Positions 27,443 to 64,000 are shown, counted from the stretch's first letter. The stretch is 64,000 nucleotides of DNA from Candidatus Kerfeldbacteria bacterium (GCA_016214565.1 JACROE010000002.1:472007-536006), one strand, 5' to 3'. The notes: generated from the letters alone by a model not told the origin. Program-made: numbers and translations.

Positions 27443-27538
27443 ACAGTATATGCAAAATAAATCAAGCGTTTTGATATTTTTGAGCTAATATTAGCAAAAA
27501 GAAAAACACCCTTCTTTTGGAAAGATGTTTTTCATTAA

Positions 27539-27662
27539 ACTGGCAATGGCCTACTGTTCCGCCCCGGCTTGCGGGGAGTATCATCGGCGCGGCCAGGCTT
27601 AACGACTGAGTTCGAGATGGGATCAGGTGTGGCCCCGGCGCTTGAATCACCAGAGGCCAGGA
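27539..27662 (-). rRNA. rrf: 5S ribosomal RNA
   Basis: Minus-strand sequence CCTGGCCTCTGGTGATTCAAGCGCCGGGG...CCGATGATACTCCCCGCAAGCCGGGG...GGCCATTGCCAG matches the 5S helix I-V consensus. About 122 nt. Confidence 0.8.
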
Positions 27663-27775
27663 AATAAATACATTATTCCCTGCGCCCTTAGCGATCAAAT
27701 ACTTGCTTGATCTAGGGAGCAATTAACAAACTAACACGTTACCTTCATCAGTGATGTGTTAGCACATCAGTGATT

Positions 27776-30835
<3,060 letters not shown>

Positions 30836-45869: not shown

Positions 45870-45964
45870 TTAAAGGGGAAAAGAACCGTCTTGCCTGAAG
45901 TTGGCTTCTTTTTTTTACCTAAAAAAGCTATACTATATATGTATTACTAATACTTATACCCCTT

Positions 45965-48379: not shown

Positions 48380-48402
48380 ACAGATATTAATACGTTGTAT
48401 CC

Positions 48403-49506
48403 ATGAAACGGACGGTTATTGCGCTTCTCACCATTGTGGCGGTTACGATTTTGACTGCGGCGCATGTTTGGCTTTGGCAGAGTATTATTTTTCTCTTTGC
48501 CATCGATAGCCTCAGCGTGAAATGGGTTCTCGGCGTGCTGTTTGGCTTGCTAGCAATTGGTTTTCTCCCCACCACCTACCTGGTGCATGTTAAGGAAAAT
48601 AATTTCACCAGTGCACTGTATTTAGGTGCAGCTGTCTGGCTGGGCAGTGCGCTCTATATCGCCATTGCCAGTGCTATTGCACTCGTGAGTGTGTGGGTGT
48701 TTGATGTTGATGAATATCGCACGGTTATTGCCGGCATTTTTATGACACTTGGGTTGGCCTACGCGGGATATGGCGTGTGGAATGCTCAGTTCCCCCGGCT
48801 GAAACGGATTACTCTGAGCGCACAAAAGTTTCCTGCTTCCTGGCGCGGCCGGACTATTGTGCAGTTGTCTGATGTACACCTGGGCGCGGTTCATCATATC
48901 CGATTTATGCGCCGTGTGGTTAACGAGGTGAAGCGGGCTCAACCTGACCTCATTGTTATTACTGGCGACTTGTATGACGGCGTGGGTCGTGAATTGGGGT
49001 TGATGGCGCAACCGTTGGCAGAGTTGCGGCCGCCTTTGGGCATGTATTACATCATTGGCAATCATGAGACCTATGTTGGGCTTGATCGGGTTTTCGATGC
49101 GCTCAAGGATTTGCCGATGCGGACACTGCGCGATGAAGTCGTAGAGATTGACGGAGTGCAGCTGCTCGGGGCAGATTATCATCTGCCGGGTCATCAGCAT
49201 GACCCGCGTCCGGTGATTGATAGGCTTGATCACGCTCGACCCGCTATTGTCTTGTATCATGAGCCTGTACCAGAAATCGTCGAGCACGCCGCCGAGAAAA
49301 ATGTCACCCTGATGTTATGTGGCCATACGCACGTGGGGCAGCTCTGGCCATTTAGCTATATCACGAAGAAAATGTATCATCGCTATCACTATGGCCGTTC
49401 TGAAGTGAAAGGCATGACACTATATACGTCACCTGGCGTCGGTACTTGGGGGCCGCCATTGCGCACGGGTAACCGTCCGGAAATTGTCACTATGACGATT
49501 GAATAA
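48403..49506 (+). CDS. Membrane-bound calcineurin-like metallophosphoesterase
   Basis: Four N-terminal TM helices, then QLSDVHLG, ITGDLYDG, GNHE, GHTH(V)GQ phosphoesterase motifs. Confidence 0.75.
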   Translation: MKRTVIALLTIVAVTILTAAHVWLWQSIIFLFAIDSLSVKWVLGVLFGLLAIGFLPTTYLVHVKENNFTSALYLGAAVWLGSALYIAIASAIALVSVWVFDVDEYRTVIAGIFMTLGLAYAGYGVWNAQFPRLKRITLSAQKFPASWRGRTIVQLSDVHLGAVHHIRFMRRVVNEVKRAQPDLIVITGDLYDGVGRELGLMAQPLAELRPPLGMYYIIGNHETYVGLDRVFDALKDLPMRTLRDEVVEIDGVQLLGADYHLPGHQHDPRPVIDRLDHARPAIVLYHEPVPEIVEHAAEKNVTLMLCGHTHVGQLWPFSYITKKMYHRYHYGRSEVKGMTLYTSPGVGTWGPPLRTGNRPEIVTMTIE

Positions 49507-49768
49507 AAAAATACCGGGAGCTCTATTATGTCGATACTCCCGGTAATAATATGCGCCGTAAGAAACTACGGCCGCGAAGAAAAAAACCGCCACGGCTTGC
49601 ATAACAAGTAATACAGAAAGCCAGGCTGAAGGAATATAGCAAATAACGTCTGAACGGTCAATAGGTAGGCCCTTGACAGCTTGCCGGTTTTGTTGTAGCC
49701 TGGTATGTTTGATGACAAATAAACAATAGTTCTTATTACAACCCCCAAACAAGAGAAGGAGTCATAGG

Positions 49769-50272
49769 ATGACACCGAATCCAGACCGCCAAGTAGGCAT
49801 CGCTACAAGTTTCGCTGATGAATGCATACCGCTGCTTCATTCCGCCCGTGGCCATATGGTCAGGGCCAAGATGATTGAGCTTGATCAGGCTTTAGCCGAC
49901 GGTCAGCCTGTCACTGAAATTCTGTGCGATCTCAGTGGAATGCATCAGCCGGAATCAGTCGTTCAGGAATCGTTTTTGGCCGGATATCAGCTGGATCTGA
50001 TCAGAGTCGGTGCGACGACAAGAAAGTTCTGGCATACTAAATTGACCGCGCTGGGCATTTCTCAGGATCGGATTAATCGCGCCGAAGTGATTGTTAAGCA
50101 GGTCAAAGAGGCTCATCCCGATCAGCCGCGTCAGATTGAGGCAATTCATGGGCTTTGTGGCGAGGAATATTTCTTGCCACCGAGCGACGAGATTGTCGAT
50201 TTGCTCGGTGATTCACCGGAGGAGATTAATCCGGATACGGATATGACGGCGGGTTCCTCCAGGGGACGCTAG
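49769..50272 (+). CDS. Hypothetical cytoplasmic protein
   Basis: 167 aa. RBS AGAAGGAG 7 nt upstream. Terminator hairpin downstream at 50303-50338. Confidence 0.35.
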   Translation: MTPNPDRQVGIATSFADECIPLLHSARGHMVRAKMIELDQALADGQPVTEILCDLSGMHQPESVVQESFLAGYQLDLIRVGATTRKFWHTKLTALGISQDRINRAEVIVKQVKEAHPDQPRQIEAIHGLCGEEYFLPPSDEIVDLLGDSPEEINPDTDMTAGSSRGR

Positions 50273-50302
50273 TCAACTTATTTTTCAGACTGTTCATCAT
50301 AG

Positions 50303-50338
50303 GCGTACGATATTCCACTCGTGCGCCTTATTTTTTTG
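50303..50338 (+). terminator. Rho-independent terminator
   Basis: GGCGTACG-atattccactc-GTGCGCC followed by TTATTTTTTT. Confidence 0.5.
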
Positions 50339-50577
50339 GTGAAATAAAAAAACCGGGGACAATCGCTACCATGAACCCGCGAGCAAATACTCACGAAATC
50401 GTGTAAGCGATTGTCCCCTAGAAAATTGGAATGAGCTCCTTTTTCTTTTTGTTTTTAATTTTCTACCCTTATTATAGCGCAAAAAAAGGCTTTTGTCAAG
50501 CATTTTTACCTGTTCATGATCTGTGCATGAGGTTGTCATGGAACGGGCGAGGTAAAGCTGGTACAATACATGAATCT

Positions 50578-53364
50578 ATGGCACGCCATGCATCACACCA
50601 GACTAGTCTCATTATCGACGCCAATGCCTTGCTGCATCGGAGTTTTCACGCGCTCCCGCCGACCCTCACCACCGCGGATGGCCAGATGGTGAACGCCGTC
50701 TACGGGTTCACCACCGTTCTCTTGAAAGTGCTGAAAGAGTTCAAACCCACCCATATCGCAGTGGCATTTGATAAGGCGAAAAAAACGTTCCGCCATGAGC
50801 AATTTACCGAGTACAAGGCTGGCCGTGCGGAAACGCCCGACGAATTTTATTCCCAGATCCCGATTGTCAAAGAGATGTTGGCGGTTTTTGGCATTCCGGT
50901 TTTCGAATTGGATGGCTATGAGGCAGACGATGTGATTGGCACGATTGTCACCCTGAATACGAAGGAGGGCATCCGCAATATCATTGTGACCGGAGATAAG
51001 GACGCCTTCCAGCTGATTGATGACAACACCTCGGTGTACACCATGCGCAAAGGCATGTCTGATACGGTGCTGTTTGATACTGACGCATTTAAGGAGAAGT
51101 ACGGGCTGGCGCCTAAACAGATGATTGATTTTAAGGCGATTGCCGGTGATCCATCAGATAATATTCCGGGAGTACGTGGTATTGGTGAAAAAGGAGCCAC
51201 GGAATTACTGAAAGCATTTCCTACGCTGGAGGCAATCTATGAGGCGGTGAAGCAGGGTGAGCAATCCGGGATTAAGCCCCGCTATCTTAAGTTGCTGACT
51301 GAGCACGAAAAGGATGCGCGCATGAGTAAAGAATTGGCTACTATTGTTTGTGACACGCCGATCAAGTATCAGAGTGATGCGGCAAAACTTAAAACATACG
51401 ACAAGCAAGCTGCCTACGCGTTATTCAAGCATTTGGAATTCAAAAGCCTGGTGACTCGATTACCTGAATTTGGCGAGACGCCCGCTGCGGTTGTTGCCCC
51501 TGCCCCACAAAAGAAACAGAAGGACGTTTCTGTTCAACCCACTGCGCCGGTTATCAAGCCGCATCGGGAAACACAGGCGCAGTACACGTTGATCAATACT
51601 GATGCGGACTTTGCGGATCTGCTGGCGCAATTAGAAAAGCAAAAATGCATTGCCGTGGACACCGAGTCAACCAGCGTTGATCCATTTCGTGCCACACTGC
51701 TTGGTATTAGTGTATGTTGGAAACCAGGAGTGGCATATTATCTGAACGTCAAAGACCACCCGCAATGGATAAAAAAATTGAAGACCGTGCTTGAAGACGA
51801 GAGCATCAAAAAAGTTGGCCATAACATAAAGTATGATTTGGCCATGCTCTGGCAGGTGGGTATCAATCTACAGCCGATCGTGTTTGATAGCATGGTTGCG
51901 TCGTATTTATTGAATCCCGGCTCGCGCGGACACAGCCTGGATGATTTGGCGTATAGCATTTTCGGATATGAAATGCAGCCCATTACCGATTTGATCGGTA
52001 AAGGCAAAGGAGCGATTACCATGGACCTGGTGCCGCTTGATCATGTGTCATGGTACGCCGCTGAAGATGCTGATTATACGTGGCAACTGTATGAACATTT
52101 CCAAACTGAGCTGAAGGAAAAAGAATTAGACGGATTGATGAAAGATATGGAGGTACCGCTGATACCGGTGTTGGCACGATTGGAGCAGAATGGTGTGCAG
52201 ATTGATGCTGACTTTTTAGAAAAATTATCCCGCGAAACTGGTAAAAAAATTGAGAAATTAGAACGGGGGATTTACGAGTTGGCTGGCGTAGAATTTAACA
52301 TCAATTCACCCGCCCAGCTGAAAGAAGTATTGTTTGAGCGATTGAAGATCAGCACTGAGGGCATTGGCAAGACAAAGACAGGTCTGTCCACGGCTGCCGC
52401 CGAGCTGGAGAAATTGCATGATCGGCATCCACTGATCCCGTTAATTCAGGAATATCGTGAGTTGGCCAAGCTCAAATCAACCTATTTAGATGCTTTGCCG
52501 CTTCTGGTAAATCCAAAAACAGGCCGAATTCACACCAGCTTCAATCAAACCGTGGCTGCGACGGGCCGGCTGTCATCCTCGGACCCGAATTTTCAAAATA
52601 TTCCCATTCGTACTGAAGAAGGCCGTCGTATCCGTGAGGCATTCATTGCCAGCCCGGGGTTTTCCATCGTGGCGGCTGATTATTCTCAGATAGAGCTGCG
52701 CATCGTCGCCTCGATCGCGGGTGACGAAAAAATGATTGCGTCATTCCGCAATGGCGAGGATATTCATAGCCGTACCGCCGCCGACGTGAACCAAATTCCC
52801 CTGGAACAGGTGACCAAGCAACAGCGCTATGAAGCAAAAGAAGTAAACTTCGGCATTCTCTATGGCATGGGCGCCTGGGGATTAGCCGCACGCCAAGGCA
52901 TGTCCCGCGAACGGGCTCGTGCTTTTATTGAAAAATATTTCATGGTGCATCCCGAAATTCAGGAGTATATGGCCACCACCATAGCCCTGGCGCATGAACA
53001 AGGATATGTCGAGACGTTATTTGGCCGCCGACGGTATTTACCTGATATCAATGCATCAATGCAACAGGTGCGAGCAGCGGCAGAGCGTATGGCTATCAAT
53101 ATGCCGATCCAGGGAACCGCCGCAGATTTATTGAAAGTCGCGATGATTCGTATTGACGCGGAATTGCCGCAGTTGAGCCCGAAAGCAAAAATGATTTTAC
53201 AGGTACACGATGAATTGGTTTTTGAGGTGCCCACGGCTGATGTGGAAAAGGTTGGAAAATTTATTGCGGAAAAAATGAACACTGCCTACACACTGAACGT
53301 ACCTATCGTCACCGAAGTCGAAGCCGGCCCGAATTGGGGGGCATTAACACCACTCGACGTATGA
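50578..53364 (+). CDS. polA: DNA polymerase I (5'-3' exonuclease plus 3'-5' exo-like plus polymerase domains)
   Basis: LIIDANALLHRSFHA (FEN), GDKDAFQL, DTESTSVDP (exo I), pol motifs A (DYSQIELR), B (RxxAKxxNFGxxYG) and C (QVHDEL). The start was trimmed to ATG 50578. Confidence 0.9.
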   Translation: MARHASHQTSLIIDANALLHRSFHALPPTLTTADGQMVNAVYGFTTVLLKVLKEFKPTHIAVAFDKAKKTFRHEQFTEYKAGRAETPDEFYSQIPIVKEMLAVFGIPVFELDGYEADDVIGTIVTLNTKEGIRNIIVTGDKDAFQLIDDNTSVYTMRKGMSDTVLFDTDAFKEKYGLAPKQMIDFKAIAGDPSDNIPGVRGIGEKGATELLKAFPTLEAIYEAVKQGEQSGIKPRYLKLLTEHEKDARMSKELATIVCDTPIKYQSDAAKLKTYDKQAAYALFKHLEFKSLVTRLPEFGETPAAVVAPAPQKKQKDVSVQPTAPVIKPHRETQAQYTLINTDADFADLLAQLEKQKCIAVDTESTSVDPFRATLLGISVCWKPGVAYYLNVKDHPQWIKKLKTVLEDESIKKVGHNIKYDLAMLWQVGINLQPIVFDSMVASYLLNPGSRGHSLDDLAYSIFGYEMQPITDLIGKGKGAITMDLVPLDHVSWYAAEDADYTWQLYEHFQTELKEKELDGLMKDMEVPLIPVLARLEQNGVQIDADFLEKLSRETGKKIEKLERGIYELAGVEFNINSPAQLKEVLFERLKISTEGIGKTKTGLSTAAAELEKLHDRHPLIPLIQEYRELAKLKSTYLDALPLLVNPKTGRIHTSFNQTVAATGRLSSSDPNFQNIPIRTEEGRRIREAFIASPGFSIVAADYSQIELRIVASIAGDEKMIASFRNGEDIHSRTAADVNQIPLEQVTKQQRYEAKEVNFGILYGMGAWGLAARQGMSRERARAFIEKYFMVHPEIQEYMATTIALAHEQGYVETLFGRRRYLPDINASMQQVRAAAERMAINMPIQGTAADLLKVAMIRIDAELPQLSPKAKMILQVHDELVFEVPTADVEKVGKFIAEKMNTAYTLNVPIVTEVEAGPNWGALTPLDV

Positions 53365-54344
53365 TATTCCTCCTGCATGGACCGGACACCTATCGATTGC
53401 GCCAGCGACTCTCTTTTTATCGTGAGGGGTTTAAGAAAAAATATGATCCAGCTGGCTATCATGTCACGTCGCTCTTAGGCGAATCATTAACCCTGGAAAA
53501 ATTCCGCGAGGCAGTTGGCCAGGGGGGCTTGTTGGCAGCCAAGCGATTTATCGTGATCGAACAGTTGCTCTCAATCAAGAAAACCACGGTGGTTGAGGCC
53601 ATTGCGAGCTATTTGTCTGAGTCAAAACATGACGACAACGTACTGATTTTTGTGGAAGAAGAGACTGCCGACGCGCCGCGCCCTAAAGGCCGTACGAAAG
53701 CTAATCCGTTGCGCGCTTTTCTGGATGAACATGCCACGGCAGAATCATTTTCGTTGTTAACGGGCACCCAGCTGATCAGTTGGATACAACAGGAAGTAAA
53801 GCGTCGCGGGGGTAGTATAGCCCCTGCCGCCGCTGCGGATCTCGCTACTCGATTGGGGGGCGATTTATGGGCCGTCTCGGCGGAAATTGAGAAACTGATT
53901 AATTTTACAGCGGGTAAATCAATTACCGAAACGCACGTGGCGGAAATGGTGCACAGCGGTTTTGATGAAAATATTTTCCACTTGACCGATGCTTTAGCTG
54001 CGCGTGACGGTAAGCTGGCAACTCGATTATTGCACGATCAGTTTGCGGCCGGCGCCGCACCTTTGTATCTCCTGACGATGCTGATTCGCCAGATGCGCAT
54101 TTTACTCCAGGTTCATTCGCTGGCCCAAAGCGAGCCGCATCCAGCCACCATCGCTCATCGTTTGGGTATTCATCCGTTTGTCGCCCAAAAGGCAGTCCGG
54201 GATGTGCGGAAGTTCCAGATGGAGGAGTTAGTGGATGTGTACCGTCAGTTGCTCGATACGGATATTGCGCTCAAAACCACCTCGCGTGATCCGCGGGTGC
54301 TCTTGGACATGGTGATTGCGCGTCTGTGTAGCGTGAAAAACTAG
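53361..54344 (+). CDS. holA: DNA polymerase III delta subunit
   Basis: MIFLLHGPDTY start overlapping the polA stop (ATGA). Clamp-loader delta N-domain, and C-terminal helical domain with LLxxL patterns. Confidence 0.65.
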   Translation: MIFLLHGPDTYRLRQRLSFYREGFKKKYDPAGYHVTSLLGESLTLEKFREAVGQGGLLAAKRFIVIEQLLSIKKTTVVEAIASYLSESKHDDNVLIFVEEETADAPRPKGRTKANPLRAFLDEHATAESFSLLTGTQLISWIQQEVKRRGGSIAPAAAADLATRLGGDLWAVSAEIEKLINFTAGKSITETHVAEMVHSGFDENIFHLTDALAARDGKLATRLLHDQFAAGAAPLYLLTMLIRQMRILLQVHSLAQSEPHPATIAHRLGIHPFVAQKAVRDVRKFQMEELVDVYRQLLDTDIALKTTSRDPRVLLDMVIARLCSVKN

Positions 54345-54601
54345 ATTTTGTTCAGCGCCGTCATCAAGCGGGATTTGTATCGGCTGGCGGTGTTTTTTGG
54401 CACCACCTTATTCTGAGCGGCCTTATCCAATACTTTGACGGCGGCCTTCACCAGTTCGGCGGCTTTTGCCTTGTCCTTGGCCGTGATGGCAGCGCGCGCA
54501 TCTTTCATGGCAGAACGCAGTCGTCCTTTGACCGATTTATTCTGAGCCGTCCGTTTCTTAGTTTGGCGAAGATGCTTGAAAGCAGCGTGTTTAATAGGCA
54601 T
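54341..54601 (-). CDS. rpsT: 30S ribosomal protein S20
   Basis: 86 aa, all-alpha, Lys/Ala-rich (KHAAFKHLRQTKKRTAQNK...KAAVKVLDKAAQN). Confidence 0.85.
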   Translation of the reverse strand: MPIKHAAFKHLRQTKKRTAQNKSVKGRLRSAMKDARAAITAKDKAKAAELVKAAVKVLDKAAQNKVVPKNTASRYKSRLMTALNKI

Positions 54602-54678
54602 ACGAGTGAGAGAAAAATAGTTACTGAATAATAAGTAGGCTTGAGTGTAGCAAAGCTTTTTCAGTATGGCAAGCGTGG

Positions 54679-55611
54679 TTAGATGGCGATATCAAGTACG
54701 GGGTATTTTTTCCAATGTGGGTCAGAAAAATGCCACCATTCCGTGGGCAACGCTTCAAAACCAGCTCGGATCATGGCTTTTTCTAGAATCAGTGCATGCC
54801 GCTCCCTGGGGGTGGGATGCGCGGGGTGTTGGCGATGTGCGCGATCCGAAAATTCGTCATAGTGCGTCGGCATGGGGAGTTCTCGCCCGTTTCTGTCCAC
54901 CAGCGTACAATCCACGCCGGTACCGCGCGTATGCACCGGTCCTTTTTTAGGATTTCCGACGTACCGCTCATCCGGAAGATGGCGCCATAATATTTTTTGT
55001 GCTGAGAGTGGCCGGTAGCAATCCCAGATTTTGAGACCATAACCTTGGCGTTGCAGTATTGCTTGCGCTTTTTTGACCATGGTGGCGACGTGGGATCGCC
55101 CCAGGATGATCCGGTTTTGGTACAGTTGCTTGCCAGTAAAATTGCGGGCGGTCGCATAGCGTGGTTCTATCTTGATACTTGGATTGAGGCGGTGCAGTGC
55201 CACTAAACCAGCGGCATGCAGGCCACCGGTGCGGAATCCGCCAGCCGAAAATCTACGAGCACGGGTTATCCGTGGGTGGAGTCCTCGTGTTGCCAATTTT
55301 TTCTTTAGATCATCTGTAAATGCAAATTGATCATACCCGAGGCAGATGATATCAGGCCGCTCGGATTCGATAACCGACAATTTATCACCACTCCCGCCGG
55401 GTATGATCCGGTCGGCCAGGCGGAGGGCGCGCATGTTTTTCACACGTTCCGCTTGGGTGAAGTAGGGGGCATAGCCTTTGACCCGGCGAACGGTTACATC
55501 ACGAGCAATCACTACAGTTAAAAAATCCCCCTTCAGTCGTGCGTCGTGGAGTAGTCTTCGATGACCTGAATGGATCAAGTCGAATGTACCGGTGACTAAT
55601 ACTTTTTTCAT
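54679..55611 (-). CDS. Fusion protein: N-terminal cytidylyltransferase-like (HxGH) nucleotidyltransferase domain plus C-terminal VanX-type D-Ala-D-Ala dipeptidase (peptidase M15D)
   Basis: N-terminus: VLVTGTFDLIHSGHRRLL. C-terminus: HTRGTGVDCTLVD (SxHxxGxAxD-type zinc site) and EWWHFSD (VanX EWWH motif). Confidence 0.55.
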   Translation of the reverse strand: MKKVLVTGTFDLIHSGHRRLLHDARLKGDFLTVVIARDVTVRRVKGYAPYFTQAERVKNMRALRLADRIIPGGSGDKLSVIESERPDIICLGYDQFAFTDDLKKKLATRGLHPRITRARRFSAGGFRTGGLHAAGLVALHRLNPSIKIEPRYATARNFTGKQLYQNRIILGRSHVATMVKKAQAILQRQGYGLKIWDCYRPLSAQKILWRHLPDERYVGNPKKGPVHTRGTGVDCTLVDRNGRELPMPTHYDEFSDRAHRQHPAHPTPRERHALILEKAMIRAGFEALPTEWWHFSDPHWKKYPVLDIAI

Positions 55612-55787
55612 AGTGCAGTCAGTATAGCAGACCCTAACACCTTGTCATTTAATCGGGTGGGGTACCACTAGCCTGTAGGCGAGTTGCGATTGCCGTGTCA
55701 GTCGCTCATGCTCCATCCTCGCGTAAAGCGACGTGGGCACCACGCGGCTTTACGTCGCAATGACAATGCTTGGGCGGGGGGAGCAAT

Positions 55788-55816
55788 TTGACAAAAGGTA
55801 TAAAATGAGTTATAAT
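55788..55816 (+). promoter_or_regulatory. Consensus sigma70-type promoter (TTGACA-17 nt-TATAAT) upstream of the giant gene
   Basis: ttgaca at 55788-55793, exact 17-nt spacer, tataat at 55811-55816. Confidence 0.5.
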
Positions 55817-55943
55817 AGCATTGTACTTAAGGAAATTAATAGAGGGAAAACCTCAAATTTCCTTAGGATTTTTGTTGTTTTTGGAAAGCCCGATGTGTCG
55901 TAAAAAGCATCGGGGGGAAGAAAAAACCAAAATAAAAATTATC

Positions 55944-58900
55944 ATGTTTTTCTTGTTTAAGAACATATCGTTTTGGCTAATACGACCCCTCAAGCTGCTG
56001 GGTGGTAAATTTTTGGCGTCCCAAGAAATACATCAAACGCGCATCACCATAAATTTTGTAGAAGAGCAGATTCGGCAAACGTATTTTCAAATTCACCGCC
56101 TTGGTATTATTCGGGTGGTTGGATCGGTGATTGGCATAATAATTTTACAAGCAATTCCCGTCACAAGCTTGATGGCGATTGAAGCGGCGAGTAATACCAA
56201 TGCAGTGATCGAGACGTCAATGCTCTCTGCAGAAGTGTTCCACCTGGCGCAATCAGATTTTGCAGCAGGCGAAGACGTGCCATTTTCGATTGAGGTAGCG
56301 CAAAAACCGATTCTACCAATTTTTAATTTTGGGAAAGTTGAACGTGTCATTGATGGTATGACATTAATGACGCCAAGCGATGATATTGAGCTAACATTAG
56401 CCGCAAATTCAACCCAGGCGAACGGGAGGAGCGCCTATGAGCAGTACACCATACCGCACGAGTATGCTACGGCACCGGGGAAATATCAGTTGCTCGTCAC
56501 CACAACCGAGGACGGGGAACAAGTAACTACTGAACGAGATTTTTATTGGGGCGTCTTGGTGTTGAATACAGATCAAGACACCTATCGTCCGGGCGATACC
56601 GCAGTATTTCAGATGGGCGCAGTGGATGACGTCGGGGTGACGGTTTGTGATGCGGATATGCGGCTGGTAGTGACTGCACCCGATGGACAAGAAACGACTC
56701 TCACTTCAGCGGCGGGTACGATCGAACGATCCGCAGAATGCGGACCGACGACTGTCACTCACGCTCCTGACTACCGTGCGGTAGCCCCGCTGACCCTCAC
56801 GGGCACCTATCAGATGGCACTCACCGCCGAGTATGACGGGGTTACCCATACGTGGGATGGCACGGTGGATGTCACTGAAACAGCGCCCTTCACCATCCGG
56901 CGTGTCGGTCCATCGCGTATTTGGCCGCAGGCTGCCTATCATATGACCCTGACAGTTACCCCGGAGGCGGATTATCAGGGTATGATTCGAGAGCAGGTAC
57001 CCGGCGACTTCATTATTACCGAGGTAGGTGAGGATGGGGCGTATTTAGAAGATGAAGTCACCACATCGGTTGAGTGGCAGGCAGACTGGCGGGCGGGTGA
57101 GACATATCATCTGAGCTATACCTTTGACGCGCCTGATATCAGCCCGGCGTTATTTACTCTGGGGCCGCTGGCGATCGGTAATTATCAGGAGACGCGCGTT
57201 TGGCAGATCGCGTCTGATGCGCTGGCTGGTACGGGCATATTAGTCTATGGCGAAGATGGCGCGAACAGCCCCAGTCCTCGCTATCGGACCTGGTCTGGTA
57301 CGGATTTGGGTAATGAGGCCAGCGCCCAGGCGGACGAAACCGTGACGGTTGATGTGAACCACAGTATCATCGAGTGCGGCACGACGCGCAATGAGTGTAT
57401 TCGCGGGGACCTAAATGATGCCGGGCACCTTGATGTTCAGGTATGGAACGGAAATACATCTGCCTGGGGCAATGGTGGCAGTGCGCCAACCAACGGTGAT
57501 TTTACTACGGGCATCGGAACGACGAATGACGTGTACCGCGCCTTTGATATCGCTTATGAAGATACATCTGGTGATGGCATGGTGGTGTATGAGTCCTCGA
57601 GCACTGCCAATGGCACAATTATGTACCGCACTTGGGACGGCACCAACTGGTCAGCTGAACAAACGCTTACGTATTCTGGCGTTAGTGGGTATGTCGCGGG
57701 GGTGGCTTTTTGGGTAGAGCTTGAAGCGGATTACGGATCAAATAATATTTTATTGGCGTTTAAGGATGGTACGAATAATGATGTGTACGCCATGCGCTGG
57801 GATGGAACTGCCTGGGTGAATAGTGGGAGCGATTTGTATACCCTCATAACCGCTGCTGGGTCGATTACCACCAAGCAAGATTTTGATATTGCTTGGGAGG
57901 GCACATCAGGTAAGGGGAAGATTGTGTATGCGACTGGTACGACAACGGGCGCTTCGACATACACTGCTGGCTCGGGTTGGGCAGCGGATTCAAGTCCTTT
58001 CAATCCAGCACTTGCCGTGCAGTGGATTCGTATCGCGGGCAGCCCGAATAACAACTACATCGCCTCAATGTACAATGCAGTGGTGAGCACCACTTCTGCT
58101 GACATGTATGTTGATATGTGGAACGGGACAGATTGGACATCCGTGACTACACCTGCGGGCGATACAGACATTAACAATAATGGGTATGCTCAACCGATGG
58201 ATGTTGCTTGGGAATACGGGTCGAGTTCGGATCGAGCGCTCTTTGTCTGGCGTGATGGTACGACCAGCGAACTTTACGTTCGGTACATGGTGTTTGACAT
58301 TGCTGGGCATGCACTCGGAAGCAATGTATTTATTGCACCTGATGATGATGGCGCCGGCACGGCAACATGCAATCTTACTGGTACGGCCAGTGATGATAAT
58401 GTGGCTACGGGTGGATTGTCGGCTGCAGAAAATTCTAACGGCCCCTGTTCAGCCGACGTAGGGATGTCATGGGAAAATGAAGTCTCTGGTATTGATTTGA
58501 ATGCAGATCCCAGCTCGCGAAAAATCATTTTACTTGGCGAAGATTTGACGCTCGATCTCAAACCTGAAGTGCAGCTGTGGAATGGCACTGATGCGGGAAC
58601 CTGGCTTACTCAAACAGCTAACATGAGTTATGAACTTGACCTGTCTACTGGTGCTACGTTGTCGACTTCATTACCGACCAAAGCGTATGATTTTGCCTTT
58701 CGTCGAGATGACACTGTCATAATCTCAGGCACGGCTTATACCAGTCATACCGAGGGTGCCACGCTCAATAGTAGCGGAGGCGCAATTAAACTAGTGAATT
58801 CCGCAACCGGCGCTACAAATTCTGATACCGACGGCACGGATGGGTCGGGTGTCTGGTCTATCCCTAATGTCCCCACCCCTACCAATGGGAATGATTTGAT

Positions 58901-61900
58901 TATTTATATTGACGGCGCGGCTACCGACGGCACGCTAGTACTCCAATACGGCGCATCATGTACTGGCACCCCGAGCTGTACGGGGTTAAAGTTATATCAA
59001 GACGCTGTAGTTGTTCGTAATGAGCACACGGGTTTGGTGACCAATCAAGATTTATCTGGTTGCGATAACGATTCCGGTACGAATTGTGCCGATACGGAAA
59101 TCGGATATACGTCCAATCTGAGCGGTACGTATAATCTGACGACATCAAGCGGTCGGGAATTACATATTTGGACTGGCGATGCGCTGGATCCGGGCGGCAC
59201 TATCACGACTGATGCCACGGGCGGTGACGTGCATGTAGATGACAGCGCCACGCTTGATTTCGATACCGCCACCAGTACGGTCGGAGCCAATTTAGTCATT
59301 GACGCCAGTGCGACTGCTAACGTCATAGCAAGTACAACCGTGACGGGCGCGGCAGCAGGCGGTGTGACCGTGGCTGGTACGCTCAATCAGACATCAGGTA
59401 CGCCCACCTTTACCATAGGTAATGGCACTGATGAAGACTTAACCACGAATACAGGTGCGAGCGTCACACTGTCGAGCGGCACGACGGTCATCAAAGATGA
59501 TTTAGTAATGAATGCGGGAACCGTGGCAGTGAGCGATACCATGGATCATAACGACAATACAACGGGCAATATTATTGATTTGAATGGTGGCGCTTTAACG
59601 ATCAGCGGCGGGACATACACGCTTGGAGGAGATTTAGAACAAGATGGCGGAACGGCAACCATTTCAACTACGTTTACGCTCGGTGGTGATCTCGATGTAA
59701 ATACCGGAACGCTCGATATTGACCCGAGTGCAAATGTAGATTTTGCCGGTGTGTTTTGTACCCAAGTGGGGGCAATTGTTAATCTGGACGGTGGGACGAC
59801 TGATGGGACAACCGCCAGCTCATCACATTTTCGATTTAATGGTGGCACGATTAACTTAACTGGTGGGACTCATCAAACAGCGTCAGATGCTATTGTTGAA
59901 TTCGCTCGAAATTCAGGGGGCGTAGATTGCAATTCTGATGGTACGCTCGGTAACACGACTTTCAATATGTCGGGCGGGGTAATGAAATCACGCGCGTATT
60001 TGGTGTACGGGTCTTATACATTGACAACGACCACCGTATCAGGAGGTACGCTGCAGCTGGGATATGGAGGCACTCAGGCATCAAATATTTTGTACAATGC
60101 GAATTCCGGTTCGTTCCAGTTTTATGATGTGACCGTTGTCGCCAGTAGTTCTATTAGCAGTTCGCAGACTTATGCATTTCCTATTAAAAATAAGTTTACT
60201 ATAAATAGCGCTCAGGATTTTAATTTGAATGGTGAAGACCTGACCGTTGACGGCGGCTGGGTGAACAACGGCACCATGACTACGCCATCGGCTGGCACGG
60301 TTACCCTGCGTGGCGGGCAGTTTACCGGAAGTGCGGACAGTAAATTTTATAATCTGACCATTGATCCATCTTCACCGGCGACCGTTACTATTGATACCGA
60401 TGTTGGCGCGGATGATCCGACGGTATACGCTGCATTGACGGTAGCGGCTAGTGATGAGCTCGCCATCGAAGTGAATAGGACTTTATTAGTCGATAGAACT
60501 TCAGGCTCAGTGTCTCTCTCCGGAACCATCAGCGGGGCGGGGCGGCTCACTTATCAGCCGGCCGCGGCCTTCCCAACTGGCGGCACGATTACTTCGATTC
60601 TGCGATTTGATTCAGAATACAACAGTCAAATTATGGGAGCTCGTACGTATGGAGGCAACGTCGAATCATATAATAATAGTGTCTCTACGAGAACGTTGAC
60701 CATGGGAACCGCAGGCGGGCAAACGATCAATGTGACTGGGGCGTTTACTGTGTTTGATAATTTTGGGGGCATGACGGTTACCGCGGCTACGCACGACCCG
60801 ACGGTGAACATAACCGGAACTTTTGGTCCTTGCACTATGGTAGATGGTAACCCTGGATTTATTGCTGATGCGGGTACCTGGACAGCAAGCGGTGATGTAA
60901 ATATGACACTGTGCTGGGGCTCATCCTTTACTGGTTCTCATACACTACTCATGGATGGTTCCTCAAAAACGTTAACGTCAAGCCTCACCTCATGGCAAAA
61001 CTTCACTGCGACCGGGACGATTACGTTGGCAAATGCCAATCATACGATAAAAGGTAATGTTGTTTTGACTGGCAGCACTATTACCGCTGGCACTTCGACT
61101 ATTAATATGACCGGTACCGCTCACGCGATTACTGGAGCCGGGCAGACACTGAATAATTTGACGATCAATCCTTCGTCGGCGGGTACAATCACCGCTCAAA
61201 CGTCAGACTTCACCGTGGGAGGGACATTAAATGTAGCAGTTGGCGACCAGTTCACTATCAATTCCGGCATTACGGTCACCCATACTGGCGCGACATTGAC
61301 GCTGTCTGGGACCATGAACGGGCCTGGACGCTTAACGTACAGAAGTGCTACGGCATTCCCCACGACCGGTACATTAGCTTCCAGTCTTATTCTCAAAATG
61401 GATAGTACGAGCACCAACCAAAGTATGGGGCAGCGGACTGATTACCAGAAAGTTGAAATTGATAATAGCGGCACGACTGCTGGACGGACGGTAACCGTCG
61501 GGACGGCTGGTTCTCAAACTATTACCATCAACTCAACGCTCGATCTGATGAACACCGGGGCAGATCCAAGTACTACTGTCTTCCAGGTAAATACGTGGGA
61601 CCCGGCGTTCACCGTGACGGGCAGCGTAACGATTGCTGCTAATACCACGTTTGAGGCGAGCTCGGCGACAACGACGAATTTTGGTGATGATTTTTCCAAT
61701 TCAGGAACTTTCACTCATAATTCCGGAGCGATTGCATTAACGACGACTACTGCAGCAACAATAGCTGGCAACACAACATTTAATAACTTCTCAGTTACGA
61801 GCATCGGCGCAGCCAAAACAATCAATTTTACGAATGGCTCTACAACAACAGTTTCTGGAACATGGACCGTAACTGGCGCTGTGGGTCAGCTCGTGACGTT

Positions 61901-64000
61901 ACAATCGACAAGTTTAGGCAATCAGTGGACTATTAATCCGACATCAGCTTCAATTTCATACGTCGACGTGAACGATTCTAATAACACTGGGGCGGCGATT
62001 TGCGCCACGTTTTCGCAATCGACTAGTGATAACAATACAAATTGGGGCGTTTCCGCGGGAGCGACCTGTGGTATCGATATTGCCGGTACTTCCAACAGTT
62101 CCGGCGGCACGGTGCGGGTTGCAGTCAATACGTCATTACAAGCGCAAACTACGACGTTAGCCGCAAGCTGGACGATCACAGGCGTGACGGTTAATAATAC
62201 CGATATTGTCACAGTTTTTGTGGAAGGTGTGGATACCGCGGAAACGACTGGCGTGGCGCAATACGACGGTACGGGCAATATCGGCGGCATGGTGCTCAAT
62301 ACCAACGTGTTGAGTATTGGCAGCGATGATAACCAAACCATCGACCTGGCCGATCTTGATTTATTCAGCTGTTCGGACAACGAAAATGTGATGCATAGTG
62401 TGGCTGCGGGCGTGCTCGATATTGAGGGGACGGACGCCGGATGCGGCGCTAACCCGGCCAACAGCTATTCCGATGAAACGTTAAAAGCGACCGCATCAGA
62501 CCCGTTATCTATTGGCAACAGCCAGACTTTGAATTCGCATAACGTTACCATTGATGCCAGCGGATCAATTACGTCGGGGACCAGCGGTGTATTTGATGTG
62601 TCAGGAACATGGGATAACAACGGAACGTTTACCGCAAGCACGTCAACCGTCACGTTTAGTTCGGGTTCTACGGAAACAGTTGAAGCTGGCTCCTCCAGTT
62701 TTAATAACGTTGTGTTTGCAAATGCTTCGGGCAATTGGACGGTTCAAACAAACAATATGACAACCAACAACCTGACACTGACGTCGGGAACGTTCACTTT
62801 GGAATCCGGGCGCACGCTGGAGGTGCAGGGAAATTATTCCCAGGCAATTGTCGCGGCTAATACTACCTGGACTGGATCGACGCTCTACCTCAATGGCAGT
62901 GGGGGAATGTATGACATCAATACTAAGACGCACGGCGGTGATACCTATGCCACGCTGCGAGTGGGTGGTAGTGAAGACATTGCCATGTGGGATTCCAGCG
63001 CGGCGACGGCCTACACCATTGATGCGGGTGGCTGTCTTTTCTCCGAAGACCATAGTGGTTCAGCCGGGCGCTTGAATATCTATGGCACCTGCAATTCACG
63101 CGCTAACGAGTATTGGAGCTACACCACTGATTTTGATGGCGCAGCGGTGACGCGGCAAACTGACGTGCGTTTCGCCCCGAGCGCCACACTAACCGTAGAT
63201 AACGGTGATACGCTGGAAATTCTTGGGCAGAGCGCCGGCGCTAACCGATCGCTGGTCACGCGTGAGAGCACGGGCAACTATGGATTGACCGTCAGCGGTA
63301 CCATCAATGCGCAGTATTATGATTTTGATTATCTCAATGCCAGCGGGCTGAATCTGACCAGCACTGCCACGGTTACCGAATTATCCGATGGGTCATTTGA
63401 TAATAATGCCAGCGGTGCGTCATCAAGCTATTTGACCTTGACCAGTCTCACTTCGTCAAAGAGTTTATTCCGAATTGTTTTTGATGAGAGTGGCGACGGC
63501 ACTGACAGTAATGTCGTTTACAATATTAATGCCGATGGCAGTGGTATTGATTGGACAATGTTGCAATGGAGCGGTGGCAAAGGCGGTGAAGCCAATGATA
63601 ATGAGGTAAATAGCGCTTCGGTCAAATGGTTTTCTGATTTAACCTTAGCGGTGAGTGCTAATAGCATTGATCTCGGTGTGGTAAATCCATTGATAACCGG
63701 TAGTGGTAGCCACACTATTACGGTCACGTCTAATGCTCCGAGCGGCTACACCTGTCGCGCGGCGGAAGATGGCAATTTACGCAATGGCGCCAGCGACATT
63801 GATGATGTGATTGATGGCGCGGTGACGACGGGCAGCGAGGAGTATGGGATTAGCTGTACTGGCGCTGATTGTCAGTTGTCGGGGGACAACGCCTTGTCTG
63901 GTTCGCCATTAACGATTGCTACCTACAATACTACCGCGGTCGCTCGAGTGACCACGCTCTACTATAAGGCGGCGATTTCTTCAGCAACAGCGGGGTTATC
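55944..64000 (+). CDS. Giant Thr/Gly/Asn-rich surface protein (beta-helix/adhesin-like), 3' end beyond the window. At least 2,685 codons are open. Alternative in-frame starts are ATG 55893 or a GTG near 56130.
   Basis: An uninterrupted plus-strand frame from 55893 to the window end, judged from a continuous by-eye translation of the whole 8 kb that met no stop. The short minus-strand ORFs over this span are antisense shadow ORFs. N-terminal hydrophobic signal/anchor LGIIRVVGSVIGIIILQAIPVTSLMA, then W-x-G-T-x-W modules, then long T/G/S/N-rich repeats with internal duplications. Confidence 0.7.
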   Translation, partial: MFFLFKNISFWLIRPLKLLGGKFLASQEIHQTRITINFVEEQIRQTYFQIHRLGIIRVVGSVIGIIILQAIPVTSLMAIEAASNTNAVIETSMLSAEVFHLAQSDFAAGEDVPFSIEVAQKPILPIFNFGKVERVIDGMTLMTPSDDIELTLAANSTQANGRSAYEQYTIPHEYATAPGKYQLLVTTTEDGEQVTTERDFYWGVLVLNTDQDTYRPGDTAVFQMGAVDDVGVTVCDADMRLVVTAPDGQETTLTSAAGTIERSAECGPTTVTHAPDYRAVAPLTLTGTYQMALTAEYDGVTHTWDGTVDVTETAPFTIRRVGPSRIWPQAAYHMTLTVTPEADYQGMIREQVPGDFIITEVGEDGAYLEDEVTTSVEWQADWRAGETYHLSYTFDAPDISPALFTLGPLAIGNYQETRVWQIASDALAGTGILVYGEDGANSPSPRYRTWSGTDLGNEASAQADETVTVDVNHSIIECGTTRNECIRGDLNDAGHLDVQVWNGNTSAWGNGGSAPTNGDFTTGIGTTNDVYRAFDIAYEDTSGDGMVVYESSSTANGTIMYRTWDGTNWSAEQTLTYSGVSGYVAGVAFWVELEADYGSNNILLAFKDGTNNDVYAMRWDGTAWVNSGSDLYTLITAAGSITTKQDFDIAWEGTSGKGKIVYATGTTTGASTYTAGSGWAADSSPFNPALAVQWIRIAGSPNNNYIASMYNAVVSTTSADMYVDMWNGTDWTSVTTPAGDTDINNNGYAQPMDVAWEYGSSSDRALFVWRDGTTSELYVRYMVFDIAGHALGSNVFIAPDDDGAGTATCNLTGTASDDNVATGGLSAAENSNGPCSADVGMSWENEVSGIDLNADPSSRKIILLGEDLTLDLKPEVQLWNGTDAGTWLTQTANMSYELDLSTGATLSTSLPTKAYDFAFRRDDTVIISGTAYTSHTEGATLNSSGGAIKLVNSATGATNSDTDGTDGSGVWSIPNVPTPTNGNDLIIYIDGAATDGTLVLQYGASCTGTPSCTGLKLYQDAVVVRNEHTGLVTNQDLSGCDNDSGTNCADTEIGYTSNLSGTYNLTTSSGRELHIWTGDALDPGGTITTDATGGDVHVDDSATLDFDTATSTVGANLVIDASATANVIASTTVTGAAAGGVTVAGTLNQTSGTPTFTIGNGTDEDLTTNTGASVTLSSGTTVIKDDLVMNAGTVAVSDTMDHNDNTTGNIIDLNGGALTISGGTYTLGGDLEQDGGTATISTTFTLGGDLDVNTGTLDIDPSANVDFAGVFCTQVGAIVNLDGGTTDGTTASSSHFRFNGGTINLTGGTHQTASDAIVEFARNSGGVDCNSDGTLGNTTFNMSGGVMKSRAYLVYGSYTLTTTTVSGGTLQLGYGGTQASNILYNANSGSFQFYDVTVVASSSISSSQTYAFPIKNKFTINSAQDFNLNGEDLTVDGGWVNNGTMTTPSAGTVTLRGGQFTGSADSKFYNLTIDPSSPATVTIDTDVGADDPTVYAALTVAASDELAIEVNRTLLVDRTSGSVSLSGTISGAGRLTYQPAAAFPTGGTITSILRFDSEYNSQIMGARTYGGNVESYNNSVSTRTLTMGTAGGQTINVTGAFTVFDNFGGMTVTAATHDPTVNITGTFGPCTMVDGNPGFIADAGTWTASGDVNMTLCWGSSFTGSHTLLMDGSSKTLTSSLTSWQNFTATGTITLANANHTIKGNVVLTGSTITAGTSTINMTGTAHAITGAGQTLNNLTINPSSAGTITAQTSDFTVGGTLNVAVGDQFTINSGITVTHTGATLTLSGTMNGPGRLTYRSATAFPTTGTLASSLILKMDSTSTNQSMGQRTDYQKVEIDNSGTTAGRTVTVGTAGSQTITINSTLDLMNTGADPSTTVFQVNTWDPAFTVTGSVTIAANTTFEASSATTTNFGDDFSNSGTFTHNSGAIALTTTTAATIAGNTTFNNFSVTSIGAAKTINFTNGSTTTVSGTWTVTGAVGQLVTLQSTSLGNQWTINPTSASISYVDVNDSNNTGAAICATFSQSTSDNNTNWGVSAGATCGIDIAGTSNSSGGTVRVAVNTSLQAQTTTLAASWTITGVTVNNTDIVTVFVEGVDTAETTGVAQYDGTGNIGGMVLNTNVLSIGSDDNQTIDLADLDLFSCSDNENVMHSVAAGVLDIEGTDAGCGANPANSYSDETLKATASDPLSIGNSQTLNSHNVTIDASGSITSGTSGVFDVSGTWDNNGTFTASTSTVTFSSGSTETVEAGSSSFNNVVFANASGNWTVQTNNMTTNNLTLTSGTFTLESGRTLEVQGNYSQAIVAANTTWTGSTLYLNGSGGMYDINTKTHGGDTYATLRVGGSEDIAMWDSSAATAYTIDAGGCLFSEDHSGSAGRLNIYGTCNSRANEYWSYTTDFDGAAVTRQTDVRFAPSATLTVDNGDTLEILGQSAGANRSLVTRESTGNYGLTVSGTINAQYYDFDYLNASGLNLTSTATVTELSDGSFDNNASGASSSYLTLTSLTSSKSLFRIVFDESGDGTDSNVVYNINADGSGIDWTMLQWSGGKGGEANDNEVNSASVKWFSDLTLAVSANSIDLGVVNPLITGSGSHTITVTSNAPSGYTCRAAEDGNLRNGASDIDDVIDGAVTTGSEEYGISCTGADCQLSGDNALSGSPLTIATYNTTAVARVTTLYYKAAISSATAGL

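Follow-up and report, generated by a model that had tools for sequence, protein, structure and literature searches.

The stretch of DNA studied here, 64,000 nucleotides (nt) from a Candidatus Kerfeldbacteria bacterium and called the window throughout, ends in a plus-strand gene for a giant protein of 2,699 amino acids (aa), and the question raised by this locus is what such a protein does in a lineage of reduced genomes (Patescibacteria group, Parcubacteria group, Candidatus Kerfeldiibacteriota; candidate phyla radiation, CPR). It is an open question by what means the episymbiotic, ultra-small CPR bacteria locate their hosts and keep hold of them. Our analysis suggests, with a probability that we put at roughly 0.6, that the giant protein sits at the tip of a Pam-type pilus as a PamT-like, acceptor-only subunit to which an adhesin of ~2,500 aa is fused. 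The Pam pilus is a usher-less, chaperone-assisted donor-strand-exchange pilus of the CPR, and cryo-electron microscopy (cryo-EM) of filaments from Candidatus Mycosynbacter amalyticus identified its pilins PamA and PamB (Troman et al. 2026, bioRxiv 10.64898/2026.03.03.709456). According to the same preprint (bioRxiv 10.64898/2026.03.03.709456), the system comprises the tip pilin PamT, the shaft pilins PamA/B/E and the membrane-anchored chaperones PamC/D, which are FimC/PapD-like and carry a C-terminal transmembrane (TM) helix; the C-terminal domain (CTD) of the pilins is a truncated immunoglobulin-like (Ig-like) domain accepting the linker strand of a neighbour, and PamT is modelled as an acceptor domain without linker, placed at the tip. 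The preprint mentions neither giant or adhesin-fused subunits, nor WxL proteins, nor Kerfeldbacteria, and it leaves the recognition of the host by the filament unexplained (bioRxiv 10.64898/2026.03.03.709456). An adhesin-fused tip subunit is thus a variant absent from it.

The giant protein and its C-terminal domain

The argument starts from two features.

55944-64000 and 40 nt more, with the stop codon at window-equivalent 64041-64043, plus strand: coding sequence of the giant protein (HZC01_02655), from the GenBank protein and an independent assembly.
63618-64000, plus strand: predicted Pam-pilin-type Ig-like acceptor domain, aa 2559-2699 (141 residues), with the last 14 residues (SYSHIVTVTCTGDF) outside the window, from a profile hidden Markov model (HMM) and an AlphaFold2 (AF2) model.

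The initial annotation of the window proposed a single plus-strand frame open for more than 8 kb, and re-translation bears this out, with 2,702 codons from 55893 to 64000 and zero stops. For DNA of ~50% G+C we estimate the chance of such a run at about (61/64)^2702, or ~1e-56, and a chance open frame is therefore excluded. The gene had also been described as truncated and as missing from the list of open reading frames (ORFs). It is indeed absent from that list, which omits ORFs running off the source end, but it is already annotated in GenBank as HZC01_02655 (a 2,699-aa 'hypothetical protein', P0001 below) on a 1,116,013-bp contig of a Candidatus Kerfeldbacteria metagenome-assembled genome (MAG); the deposited protein is 100% identical to that encoded in the window and ends only 14 residues past it, so that the gene is essentially complete here. 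Nor do solely antisense shadow ORFs overlap it, as had been stated, since several out-of-frame ORFs of the plus strand overlap it too. A protein that is long, of low complexity and internally duplicated also raises the concern of an artefact, be it a chimeric repeat-driven contig, a possibility named from the outset, or a pseudo-ORF. However, the Logan assembly of run SRR12113407 (L081, a 42,957-bp contig) has 0 mismatches to window 44679-64000 (~19.3 kb) and finishes the stop codon of the gene at window-equivalent 64043. Since these two independent assemblies are identical base for base, a repeat-driven misassembly is unlikely, and together with dozens of collinear homologs, two protein regions with a high-confidence predicted fold and the estimate given above, this leaves an artefact of assembly or annotation scarcely credible. 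The start codon is ambiguous, with three in-frame possibilities: TTG 55875, the start of the Logan gene call (2,722 aa), with AGGA at 55865-55868, 6 nt upstream; ATG 55893, preferred in the initial annotation; and ATG 55944, the GenBank start (2,699 aa).

It is the C-terminus that connects the giant protein to pili. An end motif, …Y.a.is..T..G.Y…T…F/Y-COOH, is shared by ~30 of 45 giants, and a search with the last 229 residues returns 13 small secreted proteins (198-350 aa) having the same CTD. The HMM bounds the domain at P0001 2559-2699 with E 1.6e-52 (E 4.3e-60 for P0072). Searched exhaustively with the profile, 1.84 billion cluster representatives yield 4,590 members at E<=1e-3, with 2,125 at E<=1e-10. 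Among the best 150 of the 4,590, the CTD ends exactly at the C-terminus in every case, and the lengths fall into classes of ~210-260 aa and ~330-375 aa with a tail to 3,217 aa, about a fifth (~30) reaching at least 1,000 aa. NCBIfam release 20 holds two models of interest, NF058581 (CPR_Pam_pilin_C, 'Pam pilus system pilin subunit') and NF058579 ('CPR-type pilus protein PamT'). The former is matched by 36 of 36 aligned CTD sequences (best E 1.6e-22), among them the small protein P0072 with 60.7 bits, above the curated cut-off of 55 bits; for the giant protein the match appeared only when the CTD was scanned alone, not with the whole sequence. Judged on sequence, the homology of the giant CTD to the Pam pilin C-terminal family is solid, although its own score stays under the curated cut-off. 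Orthology with PamT itself is another matter: the equivalog model NF058579 (cut-off 240 bits) gives only 19.9 bits (E 3.8e-4) over 77 residues, and this score and the length of 2,699 aa against the single-domain ~240 aa of PamT rule it out.

The predicted structure points in the same direction. The AF2 model of the CTD is an Ig-like sandwich with a predicted local distance difference test (pLDDT) value of 93.2, and its top Foldseek matches are CsuA/B, FocH, PapA, the PapG pilin domain, FimG, CfaB and CsuE (best E 2.6e-3). The structural neighbours and their scores are as follows.

TLP-1b pond fibril: 8.1
FimH pilin domain: 7.3
CfaE/CfaB: 7.1
CsuA/B: 7.0
Pyrodictium CanX: 6.9
DUF1102 tube: 6.7
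archaeal bundling pilin: 6.4
CupE: 6.3

The scores are modest, while the pilin theme is uniform, and in the model the CTD is a truncated Ig-like fold of the chaperone-usher pilin type. Like the tip adhesins of chaperone-usher pili (FimH, PapG, FocH, CsuE, CfaE), whose pilin domains are among the best structural matches, the giant protein would combine an N-terminal binding part with an incomplete C-terminal Ig-like pilin domain that accepts without donating. It differs from them in that there is no detectable sequence homology (phmmer of the whole protein and the CTD profile both find no match in the PDB), no usher and no outer membrane here, the Pam-type chaperones are membrane-anchored, and the binding part has ~2,500 aa instead of ~150-200 aa. 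Further fibres built by donor strands, either chaperone-free or environmental (TasA, archaeal bundling pili, Pyrodictium cannulae and the Tsinghua Lotus Pond TLP-1 fibrils, PMC11494351), share only 10% identity and no common sequence family with it. Kinship with the TLP-1 fibrils in particular was considered and dropped, as the resemblance is at the level of fold only; the closest predicted relative of TLP-1 is a Flavobacteriales protein.

The predicted fold also bears on a different interpretation of the C-terminus, by which the giant would be an outer-membrane, autotransporter-like protein with its C-terminal aromatic residue as the signal for beta-barrel insertion. The C-termini of many family members do show alternating hydrophobic residues and close with Phe or Tyr, and the Thr/Gly-rich region resembles a passenger. 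A sandwich of 141 residues (pLDDT 93) with pilins as its structural neighbours, however, is not a barrel of at least 250 residues, and we know of no outer membrane or beta-barrel assembly machinery (BAM) in Patescibacteria, so that this interpretation is effectively refuted by the predicted fold and hardly worth entertaining further.

Whether the giant protein can also donate a strand decides its place in a filament. The 30 residues upstream of the CTD were extracted and compared in three classes of proteins.

Shaft-type pilins of 331-480 aa (n=83): an alternating-hydrophobic strand, …I(I/V).dDQVtVsATV, strongly conserved directly before the CTD.
Small PamT-like proteins (n=132): strand before the CTD absent.
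Proteins of at least 1,000 aa, including P0001 (n=44): strand absent, with the end of the preceding domain in its place (…GNKGGE..D.E….W or …CWDF).

The conservation of this strand in the shaft-type pilins agrees with the preprint, which counts the donated linker among the most conserved regions. In P0001, the segment before the CTD reads …GGEANDNEVNSASVKWFSD|LTLAV, whereas the pilin encoded by the next gene downstream (gene 2) carries a donor strand, …NDVTVSVNV|LPNLTLTID. A subunit that accepts but cannot donate a strand could occupy only the distal end of a filament, so the giant protein would be a tip subunit. In P0071-P0083, which are small PamT-like proteins, the stretch separating signal peptide and acceptor domain holds S[ST]NY.L..d..G repeats, two or three per protein, a motif without family annotation.

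Downstream genes and related loci

From the gene order of related loci, a pilin of ~350 aa was predicted just past the window, and the recovered source contig (L081) confirmed it.

64149-65207 (window-equivalent), same strand as the giant gene: gene 2, 352 aa, with signal peptide, N-terminal sandwich, donor strand and CTD (E 4.2e-24).

Gene 2 ends in …VYSHIVTWTATANF and matches NF058581 with E 7.2e-5; gene 3 of the contig begins as its paralog. Partner genes just outside the window, as expected in the initial annotation, are thus present. The spacer between the giant gene and gene 2 has 105 nt (L081:1464-1568; window-equivalent 64044-64148) and holds a near-consensus promoter, TTGACA-17-TAAAAT, so that gene 2 is probably transcribed independently of the giant gene.

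The related loci were collected by taking the close CTD subfamily as query and scanning a single genome for each GTDB species, the source genome being absent from the representatives scanned. The scan found 100 loci, and the 80 kept are essentially all from Patescibacteria MAGs, including a complete Kerfeldbacteria chromosome. The CTD is C-terminal in 114 of 114 locus ORFs, of which 102 are shorter than 400 aa and 6 have at least 1,500 aa. The order of the loci is stereotyped: first comes the acceptor protein, which is giant in some loci and small (210-320 aa) in others, then often a CTD pilin of ~345-370 aa, with a chaperone-like protein of ~290-340 aa and often a protein of ~1,000-1,400 aa as further members. 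In every locus examined (L001, L002, L004, L005, L017, L022, L026, L082, L084 and the source), the gene after that of a large CTD protein encodes a pilin on the same strand, and six of these loci (L004, L005, L017, L022, L026, L082) have, among the genes that come next, some for proteins with both a signal peptide and a C-terminal TM helix. For example in L082, the giant P0013 is followed by a pilin of 343 aa and a chaperone-like protein of 329 aa, and in L084 two pilins and three chaperone-like genes come after the giant P0018; both giants have the conserved N-terminal module described below. In one clade (L017, L022, L082, L026) the CTDs of giant and adjacent pilin are 58-90% identical, against ~44% between loci, a pattern that suggests gene conversion.

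Upstream of the giant gene, the window holds polA (50431-53364), holA (53334-54344) and, on the minus strand, rpsT (54341-54601). Ahead of the cluster, the genes polA, holA, RmuC and S20 are found again in 19-28 of the 80 loci, the polA-holA pair in 24-28. The one polA-holA locus examined at the level of single genes, L013, has a small PamT-like gene as the first of its CTD cluster, in the place taken here by the giant. Many contigs of 'binchicken' MAGs with a Pam-type operon (L001, L007, L010, L012-L014 and others) are titled 'uncultured Gammaproteobacteria bacterium'; these titles are probably placeholder mislabels, as the Pam-type cluster and the polA-holA synteny look patescibacterial.

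Compared with the published Pam system, the locus shows the following likenesses: judged by homology, the giant CTD belongs to the same family, with the same predicted truncated Ig-like fold; the giant has no donor linker, as PamT; gene 2 has the architecture and size of PamB (signal peptide, N-terminal sandwich, linker and CTD in 352 aa); related loci encode proteins like PamC/D, with signal peptide, two Ig-like domains and C-terminal TM helix; and the system has no usher and is restricted to the CPR. The differences are that PamT is a single domain of ~240 aa while the acceptor domain here ends a multi-domain protein of 2,699 aa, that the source lineage is Kerfeldbacteria (Parcubacteria group), that the scores of the giant lie below the curated NCBIfam cut-offs, and that the neighbourhood is polA-holA-rpsT here and ATP synthase there.

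The chaperone-like proteins deserve a closer look. They combine a signal peptide with two Ig-like domains and an FW.PW motif, and carry a basic tail in addition to the C-terminal TM helix; across the 80 loci there are 68 candidates, 63 of them with a TM helix near the end. Such genes are present in L026, L082 and L084, while the source cluster has the CTD pilins gene 2 and gene 3. In the Pfam scan, 26 of 43 members (alignment A4) match WxLIP_PGBD/DUF916 (PF06030), the best with 28.0 bits (Kerfeldbacteria locus L026) against a cut-off of 27.3. A tblastn search of a chaperone-like protein against 7.3 Gb of plasmids returns mostly 'DUF916 domain-containing' annotations (best E 7e-7), and the chaperone-like HMM matches a Streptomyces DUF916 protein with E 5.6e-27. 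The stretches concerned are as follows.

L026:11594-12622: chaperone-like/DUF916
L082:17081-18070: chaperone-like/DUF916
L084:24719-28043: chaperone-like/DUF916
L085:6872-7825: chaperone-like/DUF916

By these sequence comparisons, the chaperone-like partners are genuine DUF916/WxLIP homologs, with relatives in Firmicutes, Actinobacteria and Deinococcus. This link is absent from the Pam preprint, which compares the chaperones only with FimC/PapD. DUF3324 was not detected in the partners by the Pfam scan, and the neighbours in the Streptomyces DUF916 locus are not CTD-like.

The DUF916 homology leads to the WxL/Csc clusters of Firmicutes, which encode a small WxL protein, a large WxL protein and WxLIP (DUF916, DUF3324 and a TM helix), and in which, by AF2 prediction, the WxL sandwich has a gap that is closed by a strand of WxLIP (PMC9772566, PMC10599100). 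In both systems, small and large secreted proteins share a common, strictly C-terminal domain, a signal-peptide partner of ~300-380 aa with a C-terminal TM helix is present (DUF916-homologous here), and strand insertion into the C-terminal domain is predicted; large WxL proteins, too, contain A2M/MG, Ig-like and beta-helical adhesin domains. On the other hand, the CTD has no Pfam WxL match and lacks the two WxL motifs, DUF3324 is undetected in the CPR partner, and WxL systems are not known to polymerise and are found in Firmicutes, not in the CPR. That the CTD is itself a WxL domain is ruled out by sequence, as Pfam WxL (PF13731) matches 0 of 36 CTD sequences even at E<=10. The CTD alignment has G-Y-x-V and T-Y/V-x-x-T at the places where, as we take the WxL consensus to run, its motifs would stand.

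Against this background, the giant protein could belong instead to a cell-surface complex, in which a membrane-anchored DUF916/WxLIP-like protein holds the CTD by strand insertion and the giant stays on the envelope, never in a filament. The partners being true DUF916 relatives (by Pfam, tblastn and HMM alike) speaks for this arrangement, as do the shared logic of the WxL clusters (PMC9772566, PMC10599100), whose large proteins were proposed as envelope-displayed, and the strong promoter of the giant gene, which suggests many copies per cell. However, the pilin encoded next to the giant, by gene 2, has the conserved donor linker that characterises polymerising Pam pilins, Pam filaments have been seen by cryo-EM in a relative, and no CTD member matches Pfam WxL. 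We consider the cell-surface complex rather unlikely as the whole explanation; the chaperone-bound state may also be an intermediate of pilus assembly, and the two arrangements are not exclusive. The chaperone/DUF916 link also suggests that a related mechanism of strand complementation operates in the poorly understood WxL clusters of enterococci, listeriae and lactobacilli. A wider speculation, which we find possible at best, is that Pam pili, the WxL/Csc clusters of Firmicutes and the DUF916 loci of Actinobacteria and Deinococcus are branches of one ancient monoderm system, in which an anchored two-Ig 'chaperone' completes a strand-deficient C-terminal Ig-like domain; the acceptor-only position would in the CPR have become a docking site for swapped mosaic adhesins (MG2-like modules, propellers and solenoids, 1,400 to >4,000 aa), which might be main host-range determinants of many uncultivated Patescibacteria.

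N-terminal parts, promoter and proposed assembly

The remaining features of the giant gene, all on the plus strand, are as follows.

55788-55816: putative sigma-70-type promoter, TTGACA 55788-55793, 17-nt spacer, TATAAT 55811-55816 (12/12 consensus match).
55823-55943: 5' leader and alternative starts (from sequence).
56100-56192: hydrophobic segment, aa 53-79 (Kyte-Doolittle), followed by IEA|A and AAS|N.
56391-57233: family-defining beta-sandwich module, aa ~150-430 (homolog conservation, AF2).
57231-58700: beta-propeller of ~7-8 blades with Trp-rich repeats YRTWDGT.W, aa ~430-920 (predicted fold).
58821-63617: Thr/Gly/Ser/Asn-rich region of ~1,600 aa, aa ~960-2558 (composition).
60123-60983 and 60897-61748: tandem duplication of a ~260-aa unit, aa 1394-1680 and aa 1652-1935 (local alignment of tiles).

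The protein was said at first to be rich in Thr, Gly, Ser and Asn, and these make up 42.3% of its residues (T 15.1, G 11.0, S 9.6, N 6.7%); it is also very acidic, with 275 D+E against 92 K+R. The N-terminal hydrophobic anchor claimed for it exists as the single hydrophobic segment of the whole protein (aa ~53-79 in a Kyte-Doolittle scan), preceded by a charged n-region of residues 1-52, but it looks more like a Sec signal peptide. The small-x-small sites IEA|A and AAS|N follow the helix, and many homologs have canonical signal peptides with AxA-type ends, e.g. …LVQA|QSS and …AVWA|AEN; a Sec signal peptide with a long n-region and presumed cleavage is therefore probable, an uncleaved signal anchor being the alternative. 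Three homologs (P0009, P0012, P0032) have an excisionase-type HTH_17 (PF12728) at the extreme N-terminus before the TM helix, and as such a DNA-binding-type domain would be cytoplasmic, an uncleaved membrane anchor is favoured in at least these three.

The helix is also the starting point of the picture drawn in the initial annotation, that of a stand-alone giant adhesin or envelope protein anchored at its N-terminus, with the CTD just another Ig-like module and the neighbouring genes unrelated. The lone helix after a long charged n-region and the homologs with HTH_17 would suit such a protein, and giant Thr/Gly-rich proteins are common in the CPR. Yet the CTD, which is homologous to the Pam pilin family, is invariably terminal, both in the locus ORFs and in the best 150 representatives, the pilin gene always comes next in the loci examined, and many homologs have ordinary cleavable signal peptides; we regard the stand-alone protein as improbable. 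The annotation was right in outline about a reduced-genome organism, here a CPR bacterium, and a giant adhesin-like protein, here secreted and all-beta, but the generic picture missed the acceptor domain and the pilus-type cluster, which together turn the generic giant adhesin into a candidate tip subunit of a donor-strand-exchange pilus.

The module at aa ~150-430 is found in 43 of 44 giant homologs, at times in two copies, with the motifs WGVL.N, TvCDA, CGP..VT..PDY, PTRIYP, FDAPDISP and R.WQIASDA, and its AF2 model is all-beta with pLDDT mostly 85-98. Within it, a stretch at aa ~207-257 resembles MG2 (PF01835), scoring 16.5 bits when the full sequence is scanned and 26.9 bits (E 6.3e-6) with the module alone against a cut-off of 32.8 bits, and several homologs have a precomputed MG2 match. 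By sequence the module is thus MG2-like, not a curated MG2 member. A fold search with the N-terminal model is dominated by generic propellers and gives no specific structural match for the module. With the whole protein, the curated libraries give only the weak MG2 match (Pfam) and none (NCBIfam). Domain scans for pectate-lyase-like, Ig-like and LamG domains had been suggested; an Ig-like (MG2-type) module is what they yield, with no pectate-lyase or LamG match in the whole protein or in five separate segments. LamG is present only in some homologs, and a beta-helix in the giant is plausible.

The propeller region has structural neighbours of lectin type. Trp-rich propellers of this kind are also seen beyond the CPR (P0050, P0054, P0057), as two tandem copies in a protein of a Nanobdellota (DPANN) archaeon and single copies in Abyssubacteria and Phycisphaerae, and are possibly surface modules shared among episymbionts. 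The region that follows, aa ~960-2558, is presumed to be a beta-solenoid stalk. Its internal duplication scores 302 against a null mean of ~49 from shuffled 120-residue windows, although self-BLAST of the protein reported no repeats, and a block at aa 1450-2050 is common to 12-24 homologs.

The N-terminal parts vary independently of the CTD. The giants of L001, L002, L004 and L005 (1,417-2,120 aa) are the closest CTD relatives and have neither the MG2-like module nor the propeller; P0003 and P0008 are most similar to the N-terminal 900 residues of P0001, and the C-terminus of P0003 differs. From this comparison, the giants are mosaics of a constant docking domain and swapped N-terminal parts.

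As for expression, the exact TTGACA-17-TATAAT promoter claimed upstream of the gene is found at 55788-55816, while its 5' leader, claimed to be long, has a moderate ~50-120 nt, depending on the start codon; transcription would start near 55823. The Rfam scan of the leader finds no family and no riboswitch or leader RNA. In the window there are 5 sites with at most one mismatch to TTGACA-17-TATAAT, against 0.38 expected from shuffles, and only 3 perfect ones including that of the giant gene. The second perfect site (31240->31212, minus strand) lies ~380 nt upstream of the 23S rRNA gene, showing that this genome really uses the consensus for strong promoters, and the site before the giant gene is a credible strong promoter on this evidence.

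Putting these parts together, we propose the following assembly. The strong sigma-70 promoter would drive transcription of the giant gene, and the protein would leave the cell by the Sec route, its N-terminal hydrophobic segment serving as the signal and probably being removed by cleavage. Its last 141 residues are predicted from sequence and model to fold as a truncated Ig-like Pam pilin domain; having no donor linker strand, the protein could accept but not donate, the property that defines PamT. By analogy with Pam, the strand of gene 2 (NDVTVSVNV) would then fill the CTD of the giant and more pilins would polymerise beneath, perhaps assisted by membrane-anchored PapD/DUF916-like chaperones, which are known from related loci and may be expected in the source genome. 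The resulting filament would carry the MG2-like module, the propeller and the long Thr/Gly-rich stalk at its far end, following the logic of FimH and PapG, and our guess at the target is a glycan or an envelope component of the host-cell surface. Tip location, cleavage and binding target are all points that we infer.

Several observations weigh against the giant as pilus tip. The insertion of the gene-2 strand into its CTD rests on analogy. The giant's own CTD scores 28.2 bits (E 1.7e-6) against NF058581, below the cut-off of 55, so that its membership comes via transitive profile links. The Pam family was reported mainly in Saccharimonadia and Microgenomatia (bioRxiv 10.64898/2026.03.03.709456), and no filament is known from Kerfeldbacteria. 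No chaperone-like gene is found in the window or in the source contig as recovered, that is as far as gene 3. In the source clade (L081, L001, L002, L004, L005), the CTDs of giant and pilin are only 33-47% identical with no concerted evolution, those of the giants (…TCTGDF) and of the pilins (…VTWTATANF) being separate conserved types. A perfect-consensus promoter fits poorly with a subunit needed once per filament, and an N-terminal helix left uncleaved would tether the giant to the membrane, favouring the cell-surface complex over a distal tip. Finally, the Pfam scan in five segments assigns no family to aa ~960-2558, leaving ~1,600 residues without an assigned fold. If the tip position is nevertheless true, the giants are concrete and abundant candidates for the host-binding end of Pam-type pili, which would explain why ~8 kb are spent on one gene in CPR genomes of ~1 Mb. 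The CTD would also be a simple handle for finding such adhesins in metagenomes, with the variable N-terminal parts open to comparison with host range.

Other features of the window and of related loci

Downstream of the Pam-type genes in one of the related loci (L082:18136-20123), the genes encode one protein with a dockerin and another that is TM-anchored and weakly matches cohesin, which hints at a further surface docking layer. In the window, upstream of polA (43755-48379, plus strand), there are genes for a 704-aa protein with three Lamin-tail domains and PKD and for an 804-aa PF09826 'Beta_propel' protein; both are of secreted type and lie outside the Pam-type cluster. The third perfect TTGACA-17-TATAAT site (50471-50499, minus strand) falls within the first 23 codons of the polA ORF (50431-53364) and points left, toward a hairpin at 50301-50328 and a 167-aa ORF at 49769-50272 (plus strand), with no minus-strand gene called there; possible explanations are an antisense or small RNA under its control, or a polA start downstream of the called one. 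In addition, the 23S rRNA gene (27770-30830, minus strand) has 3,061 nt against the 2,925 positions of the model and may contain insertions, and the 5S rRNA gene lies at 27538-27654 on the same strand, with no 16S adjacent to the two.

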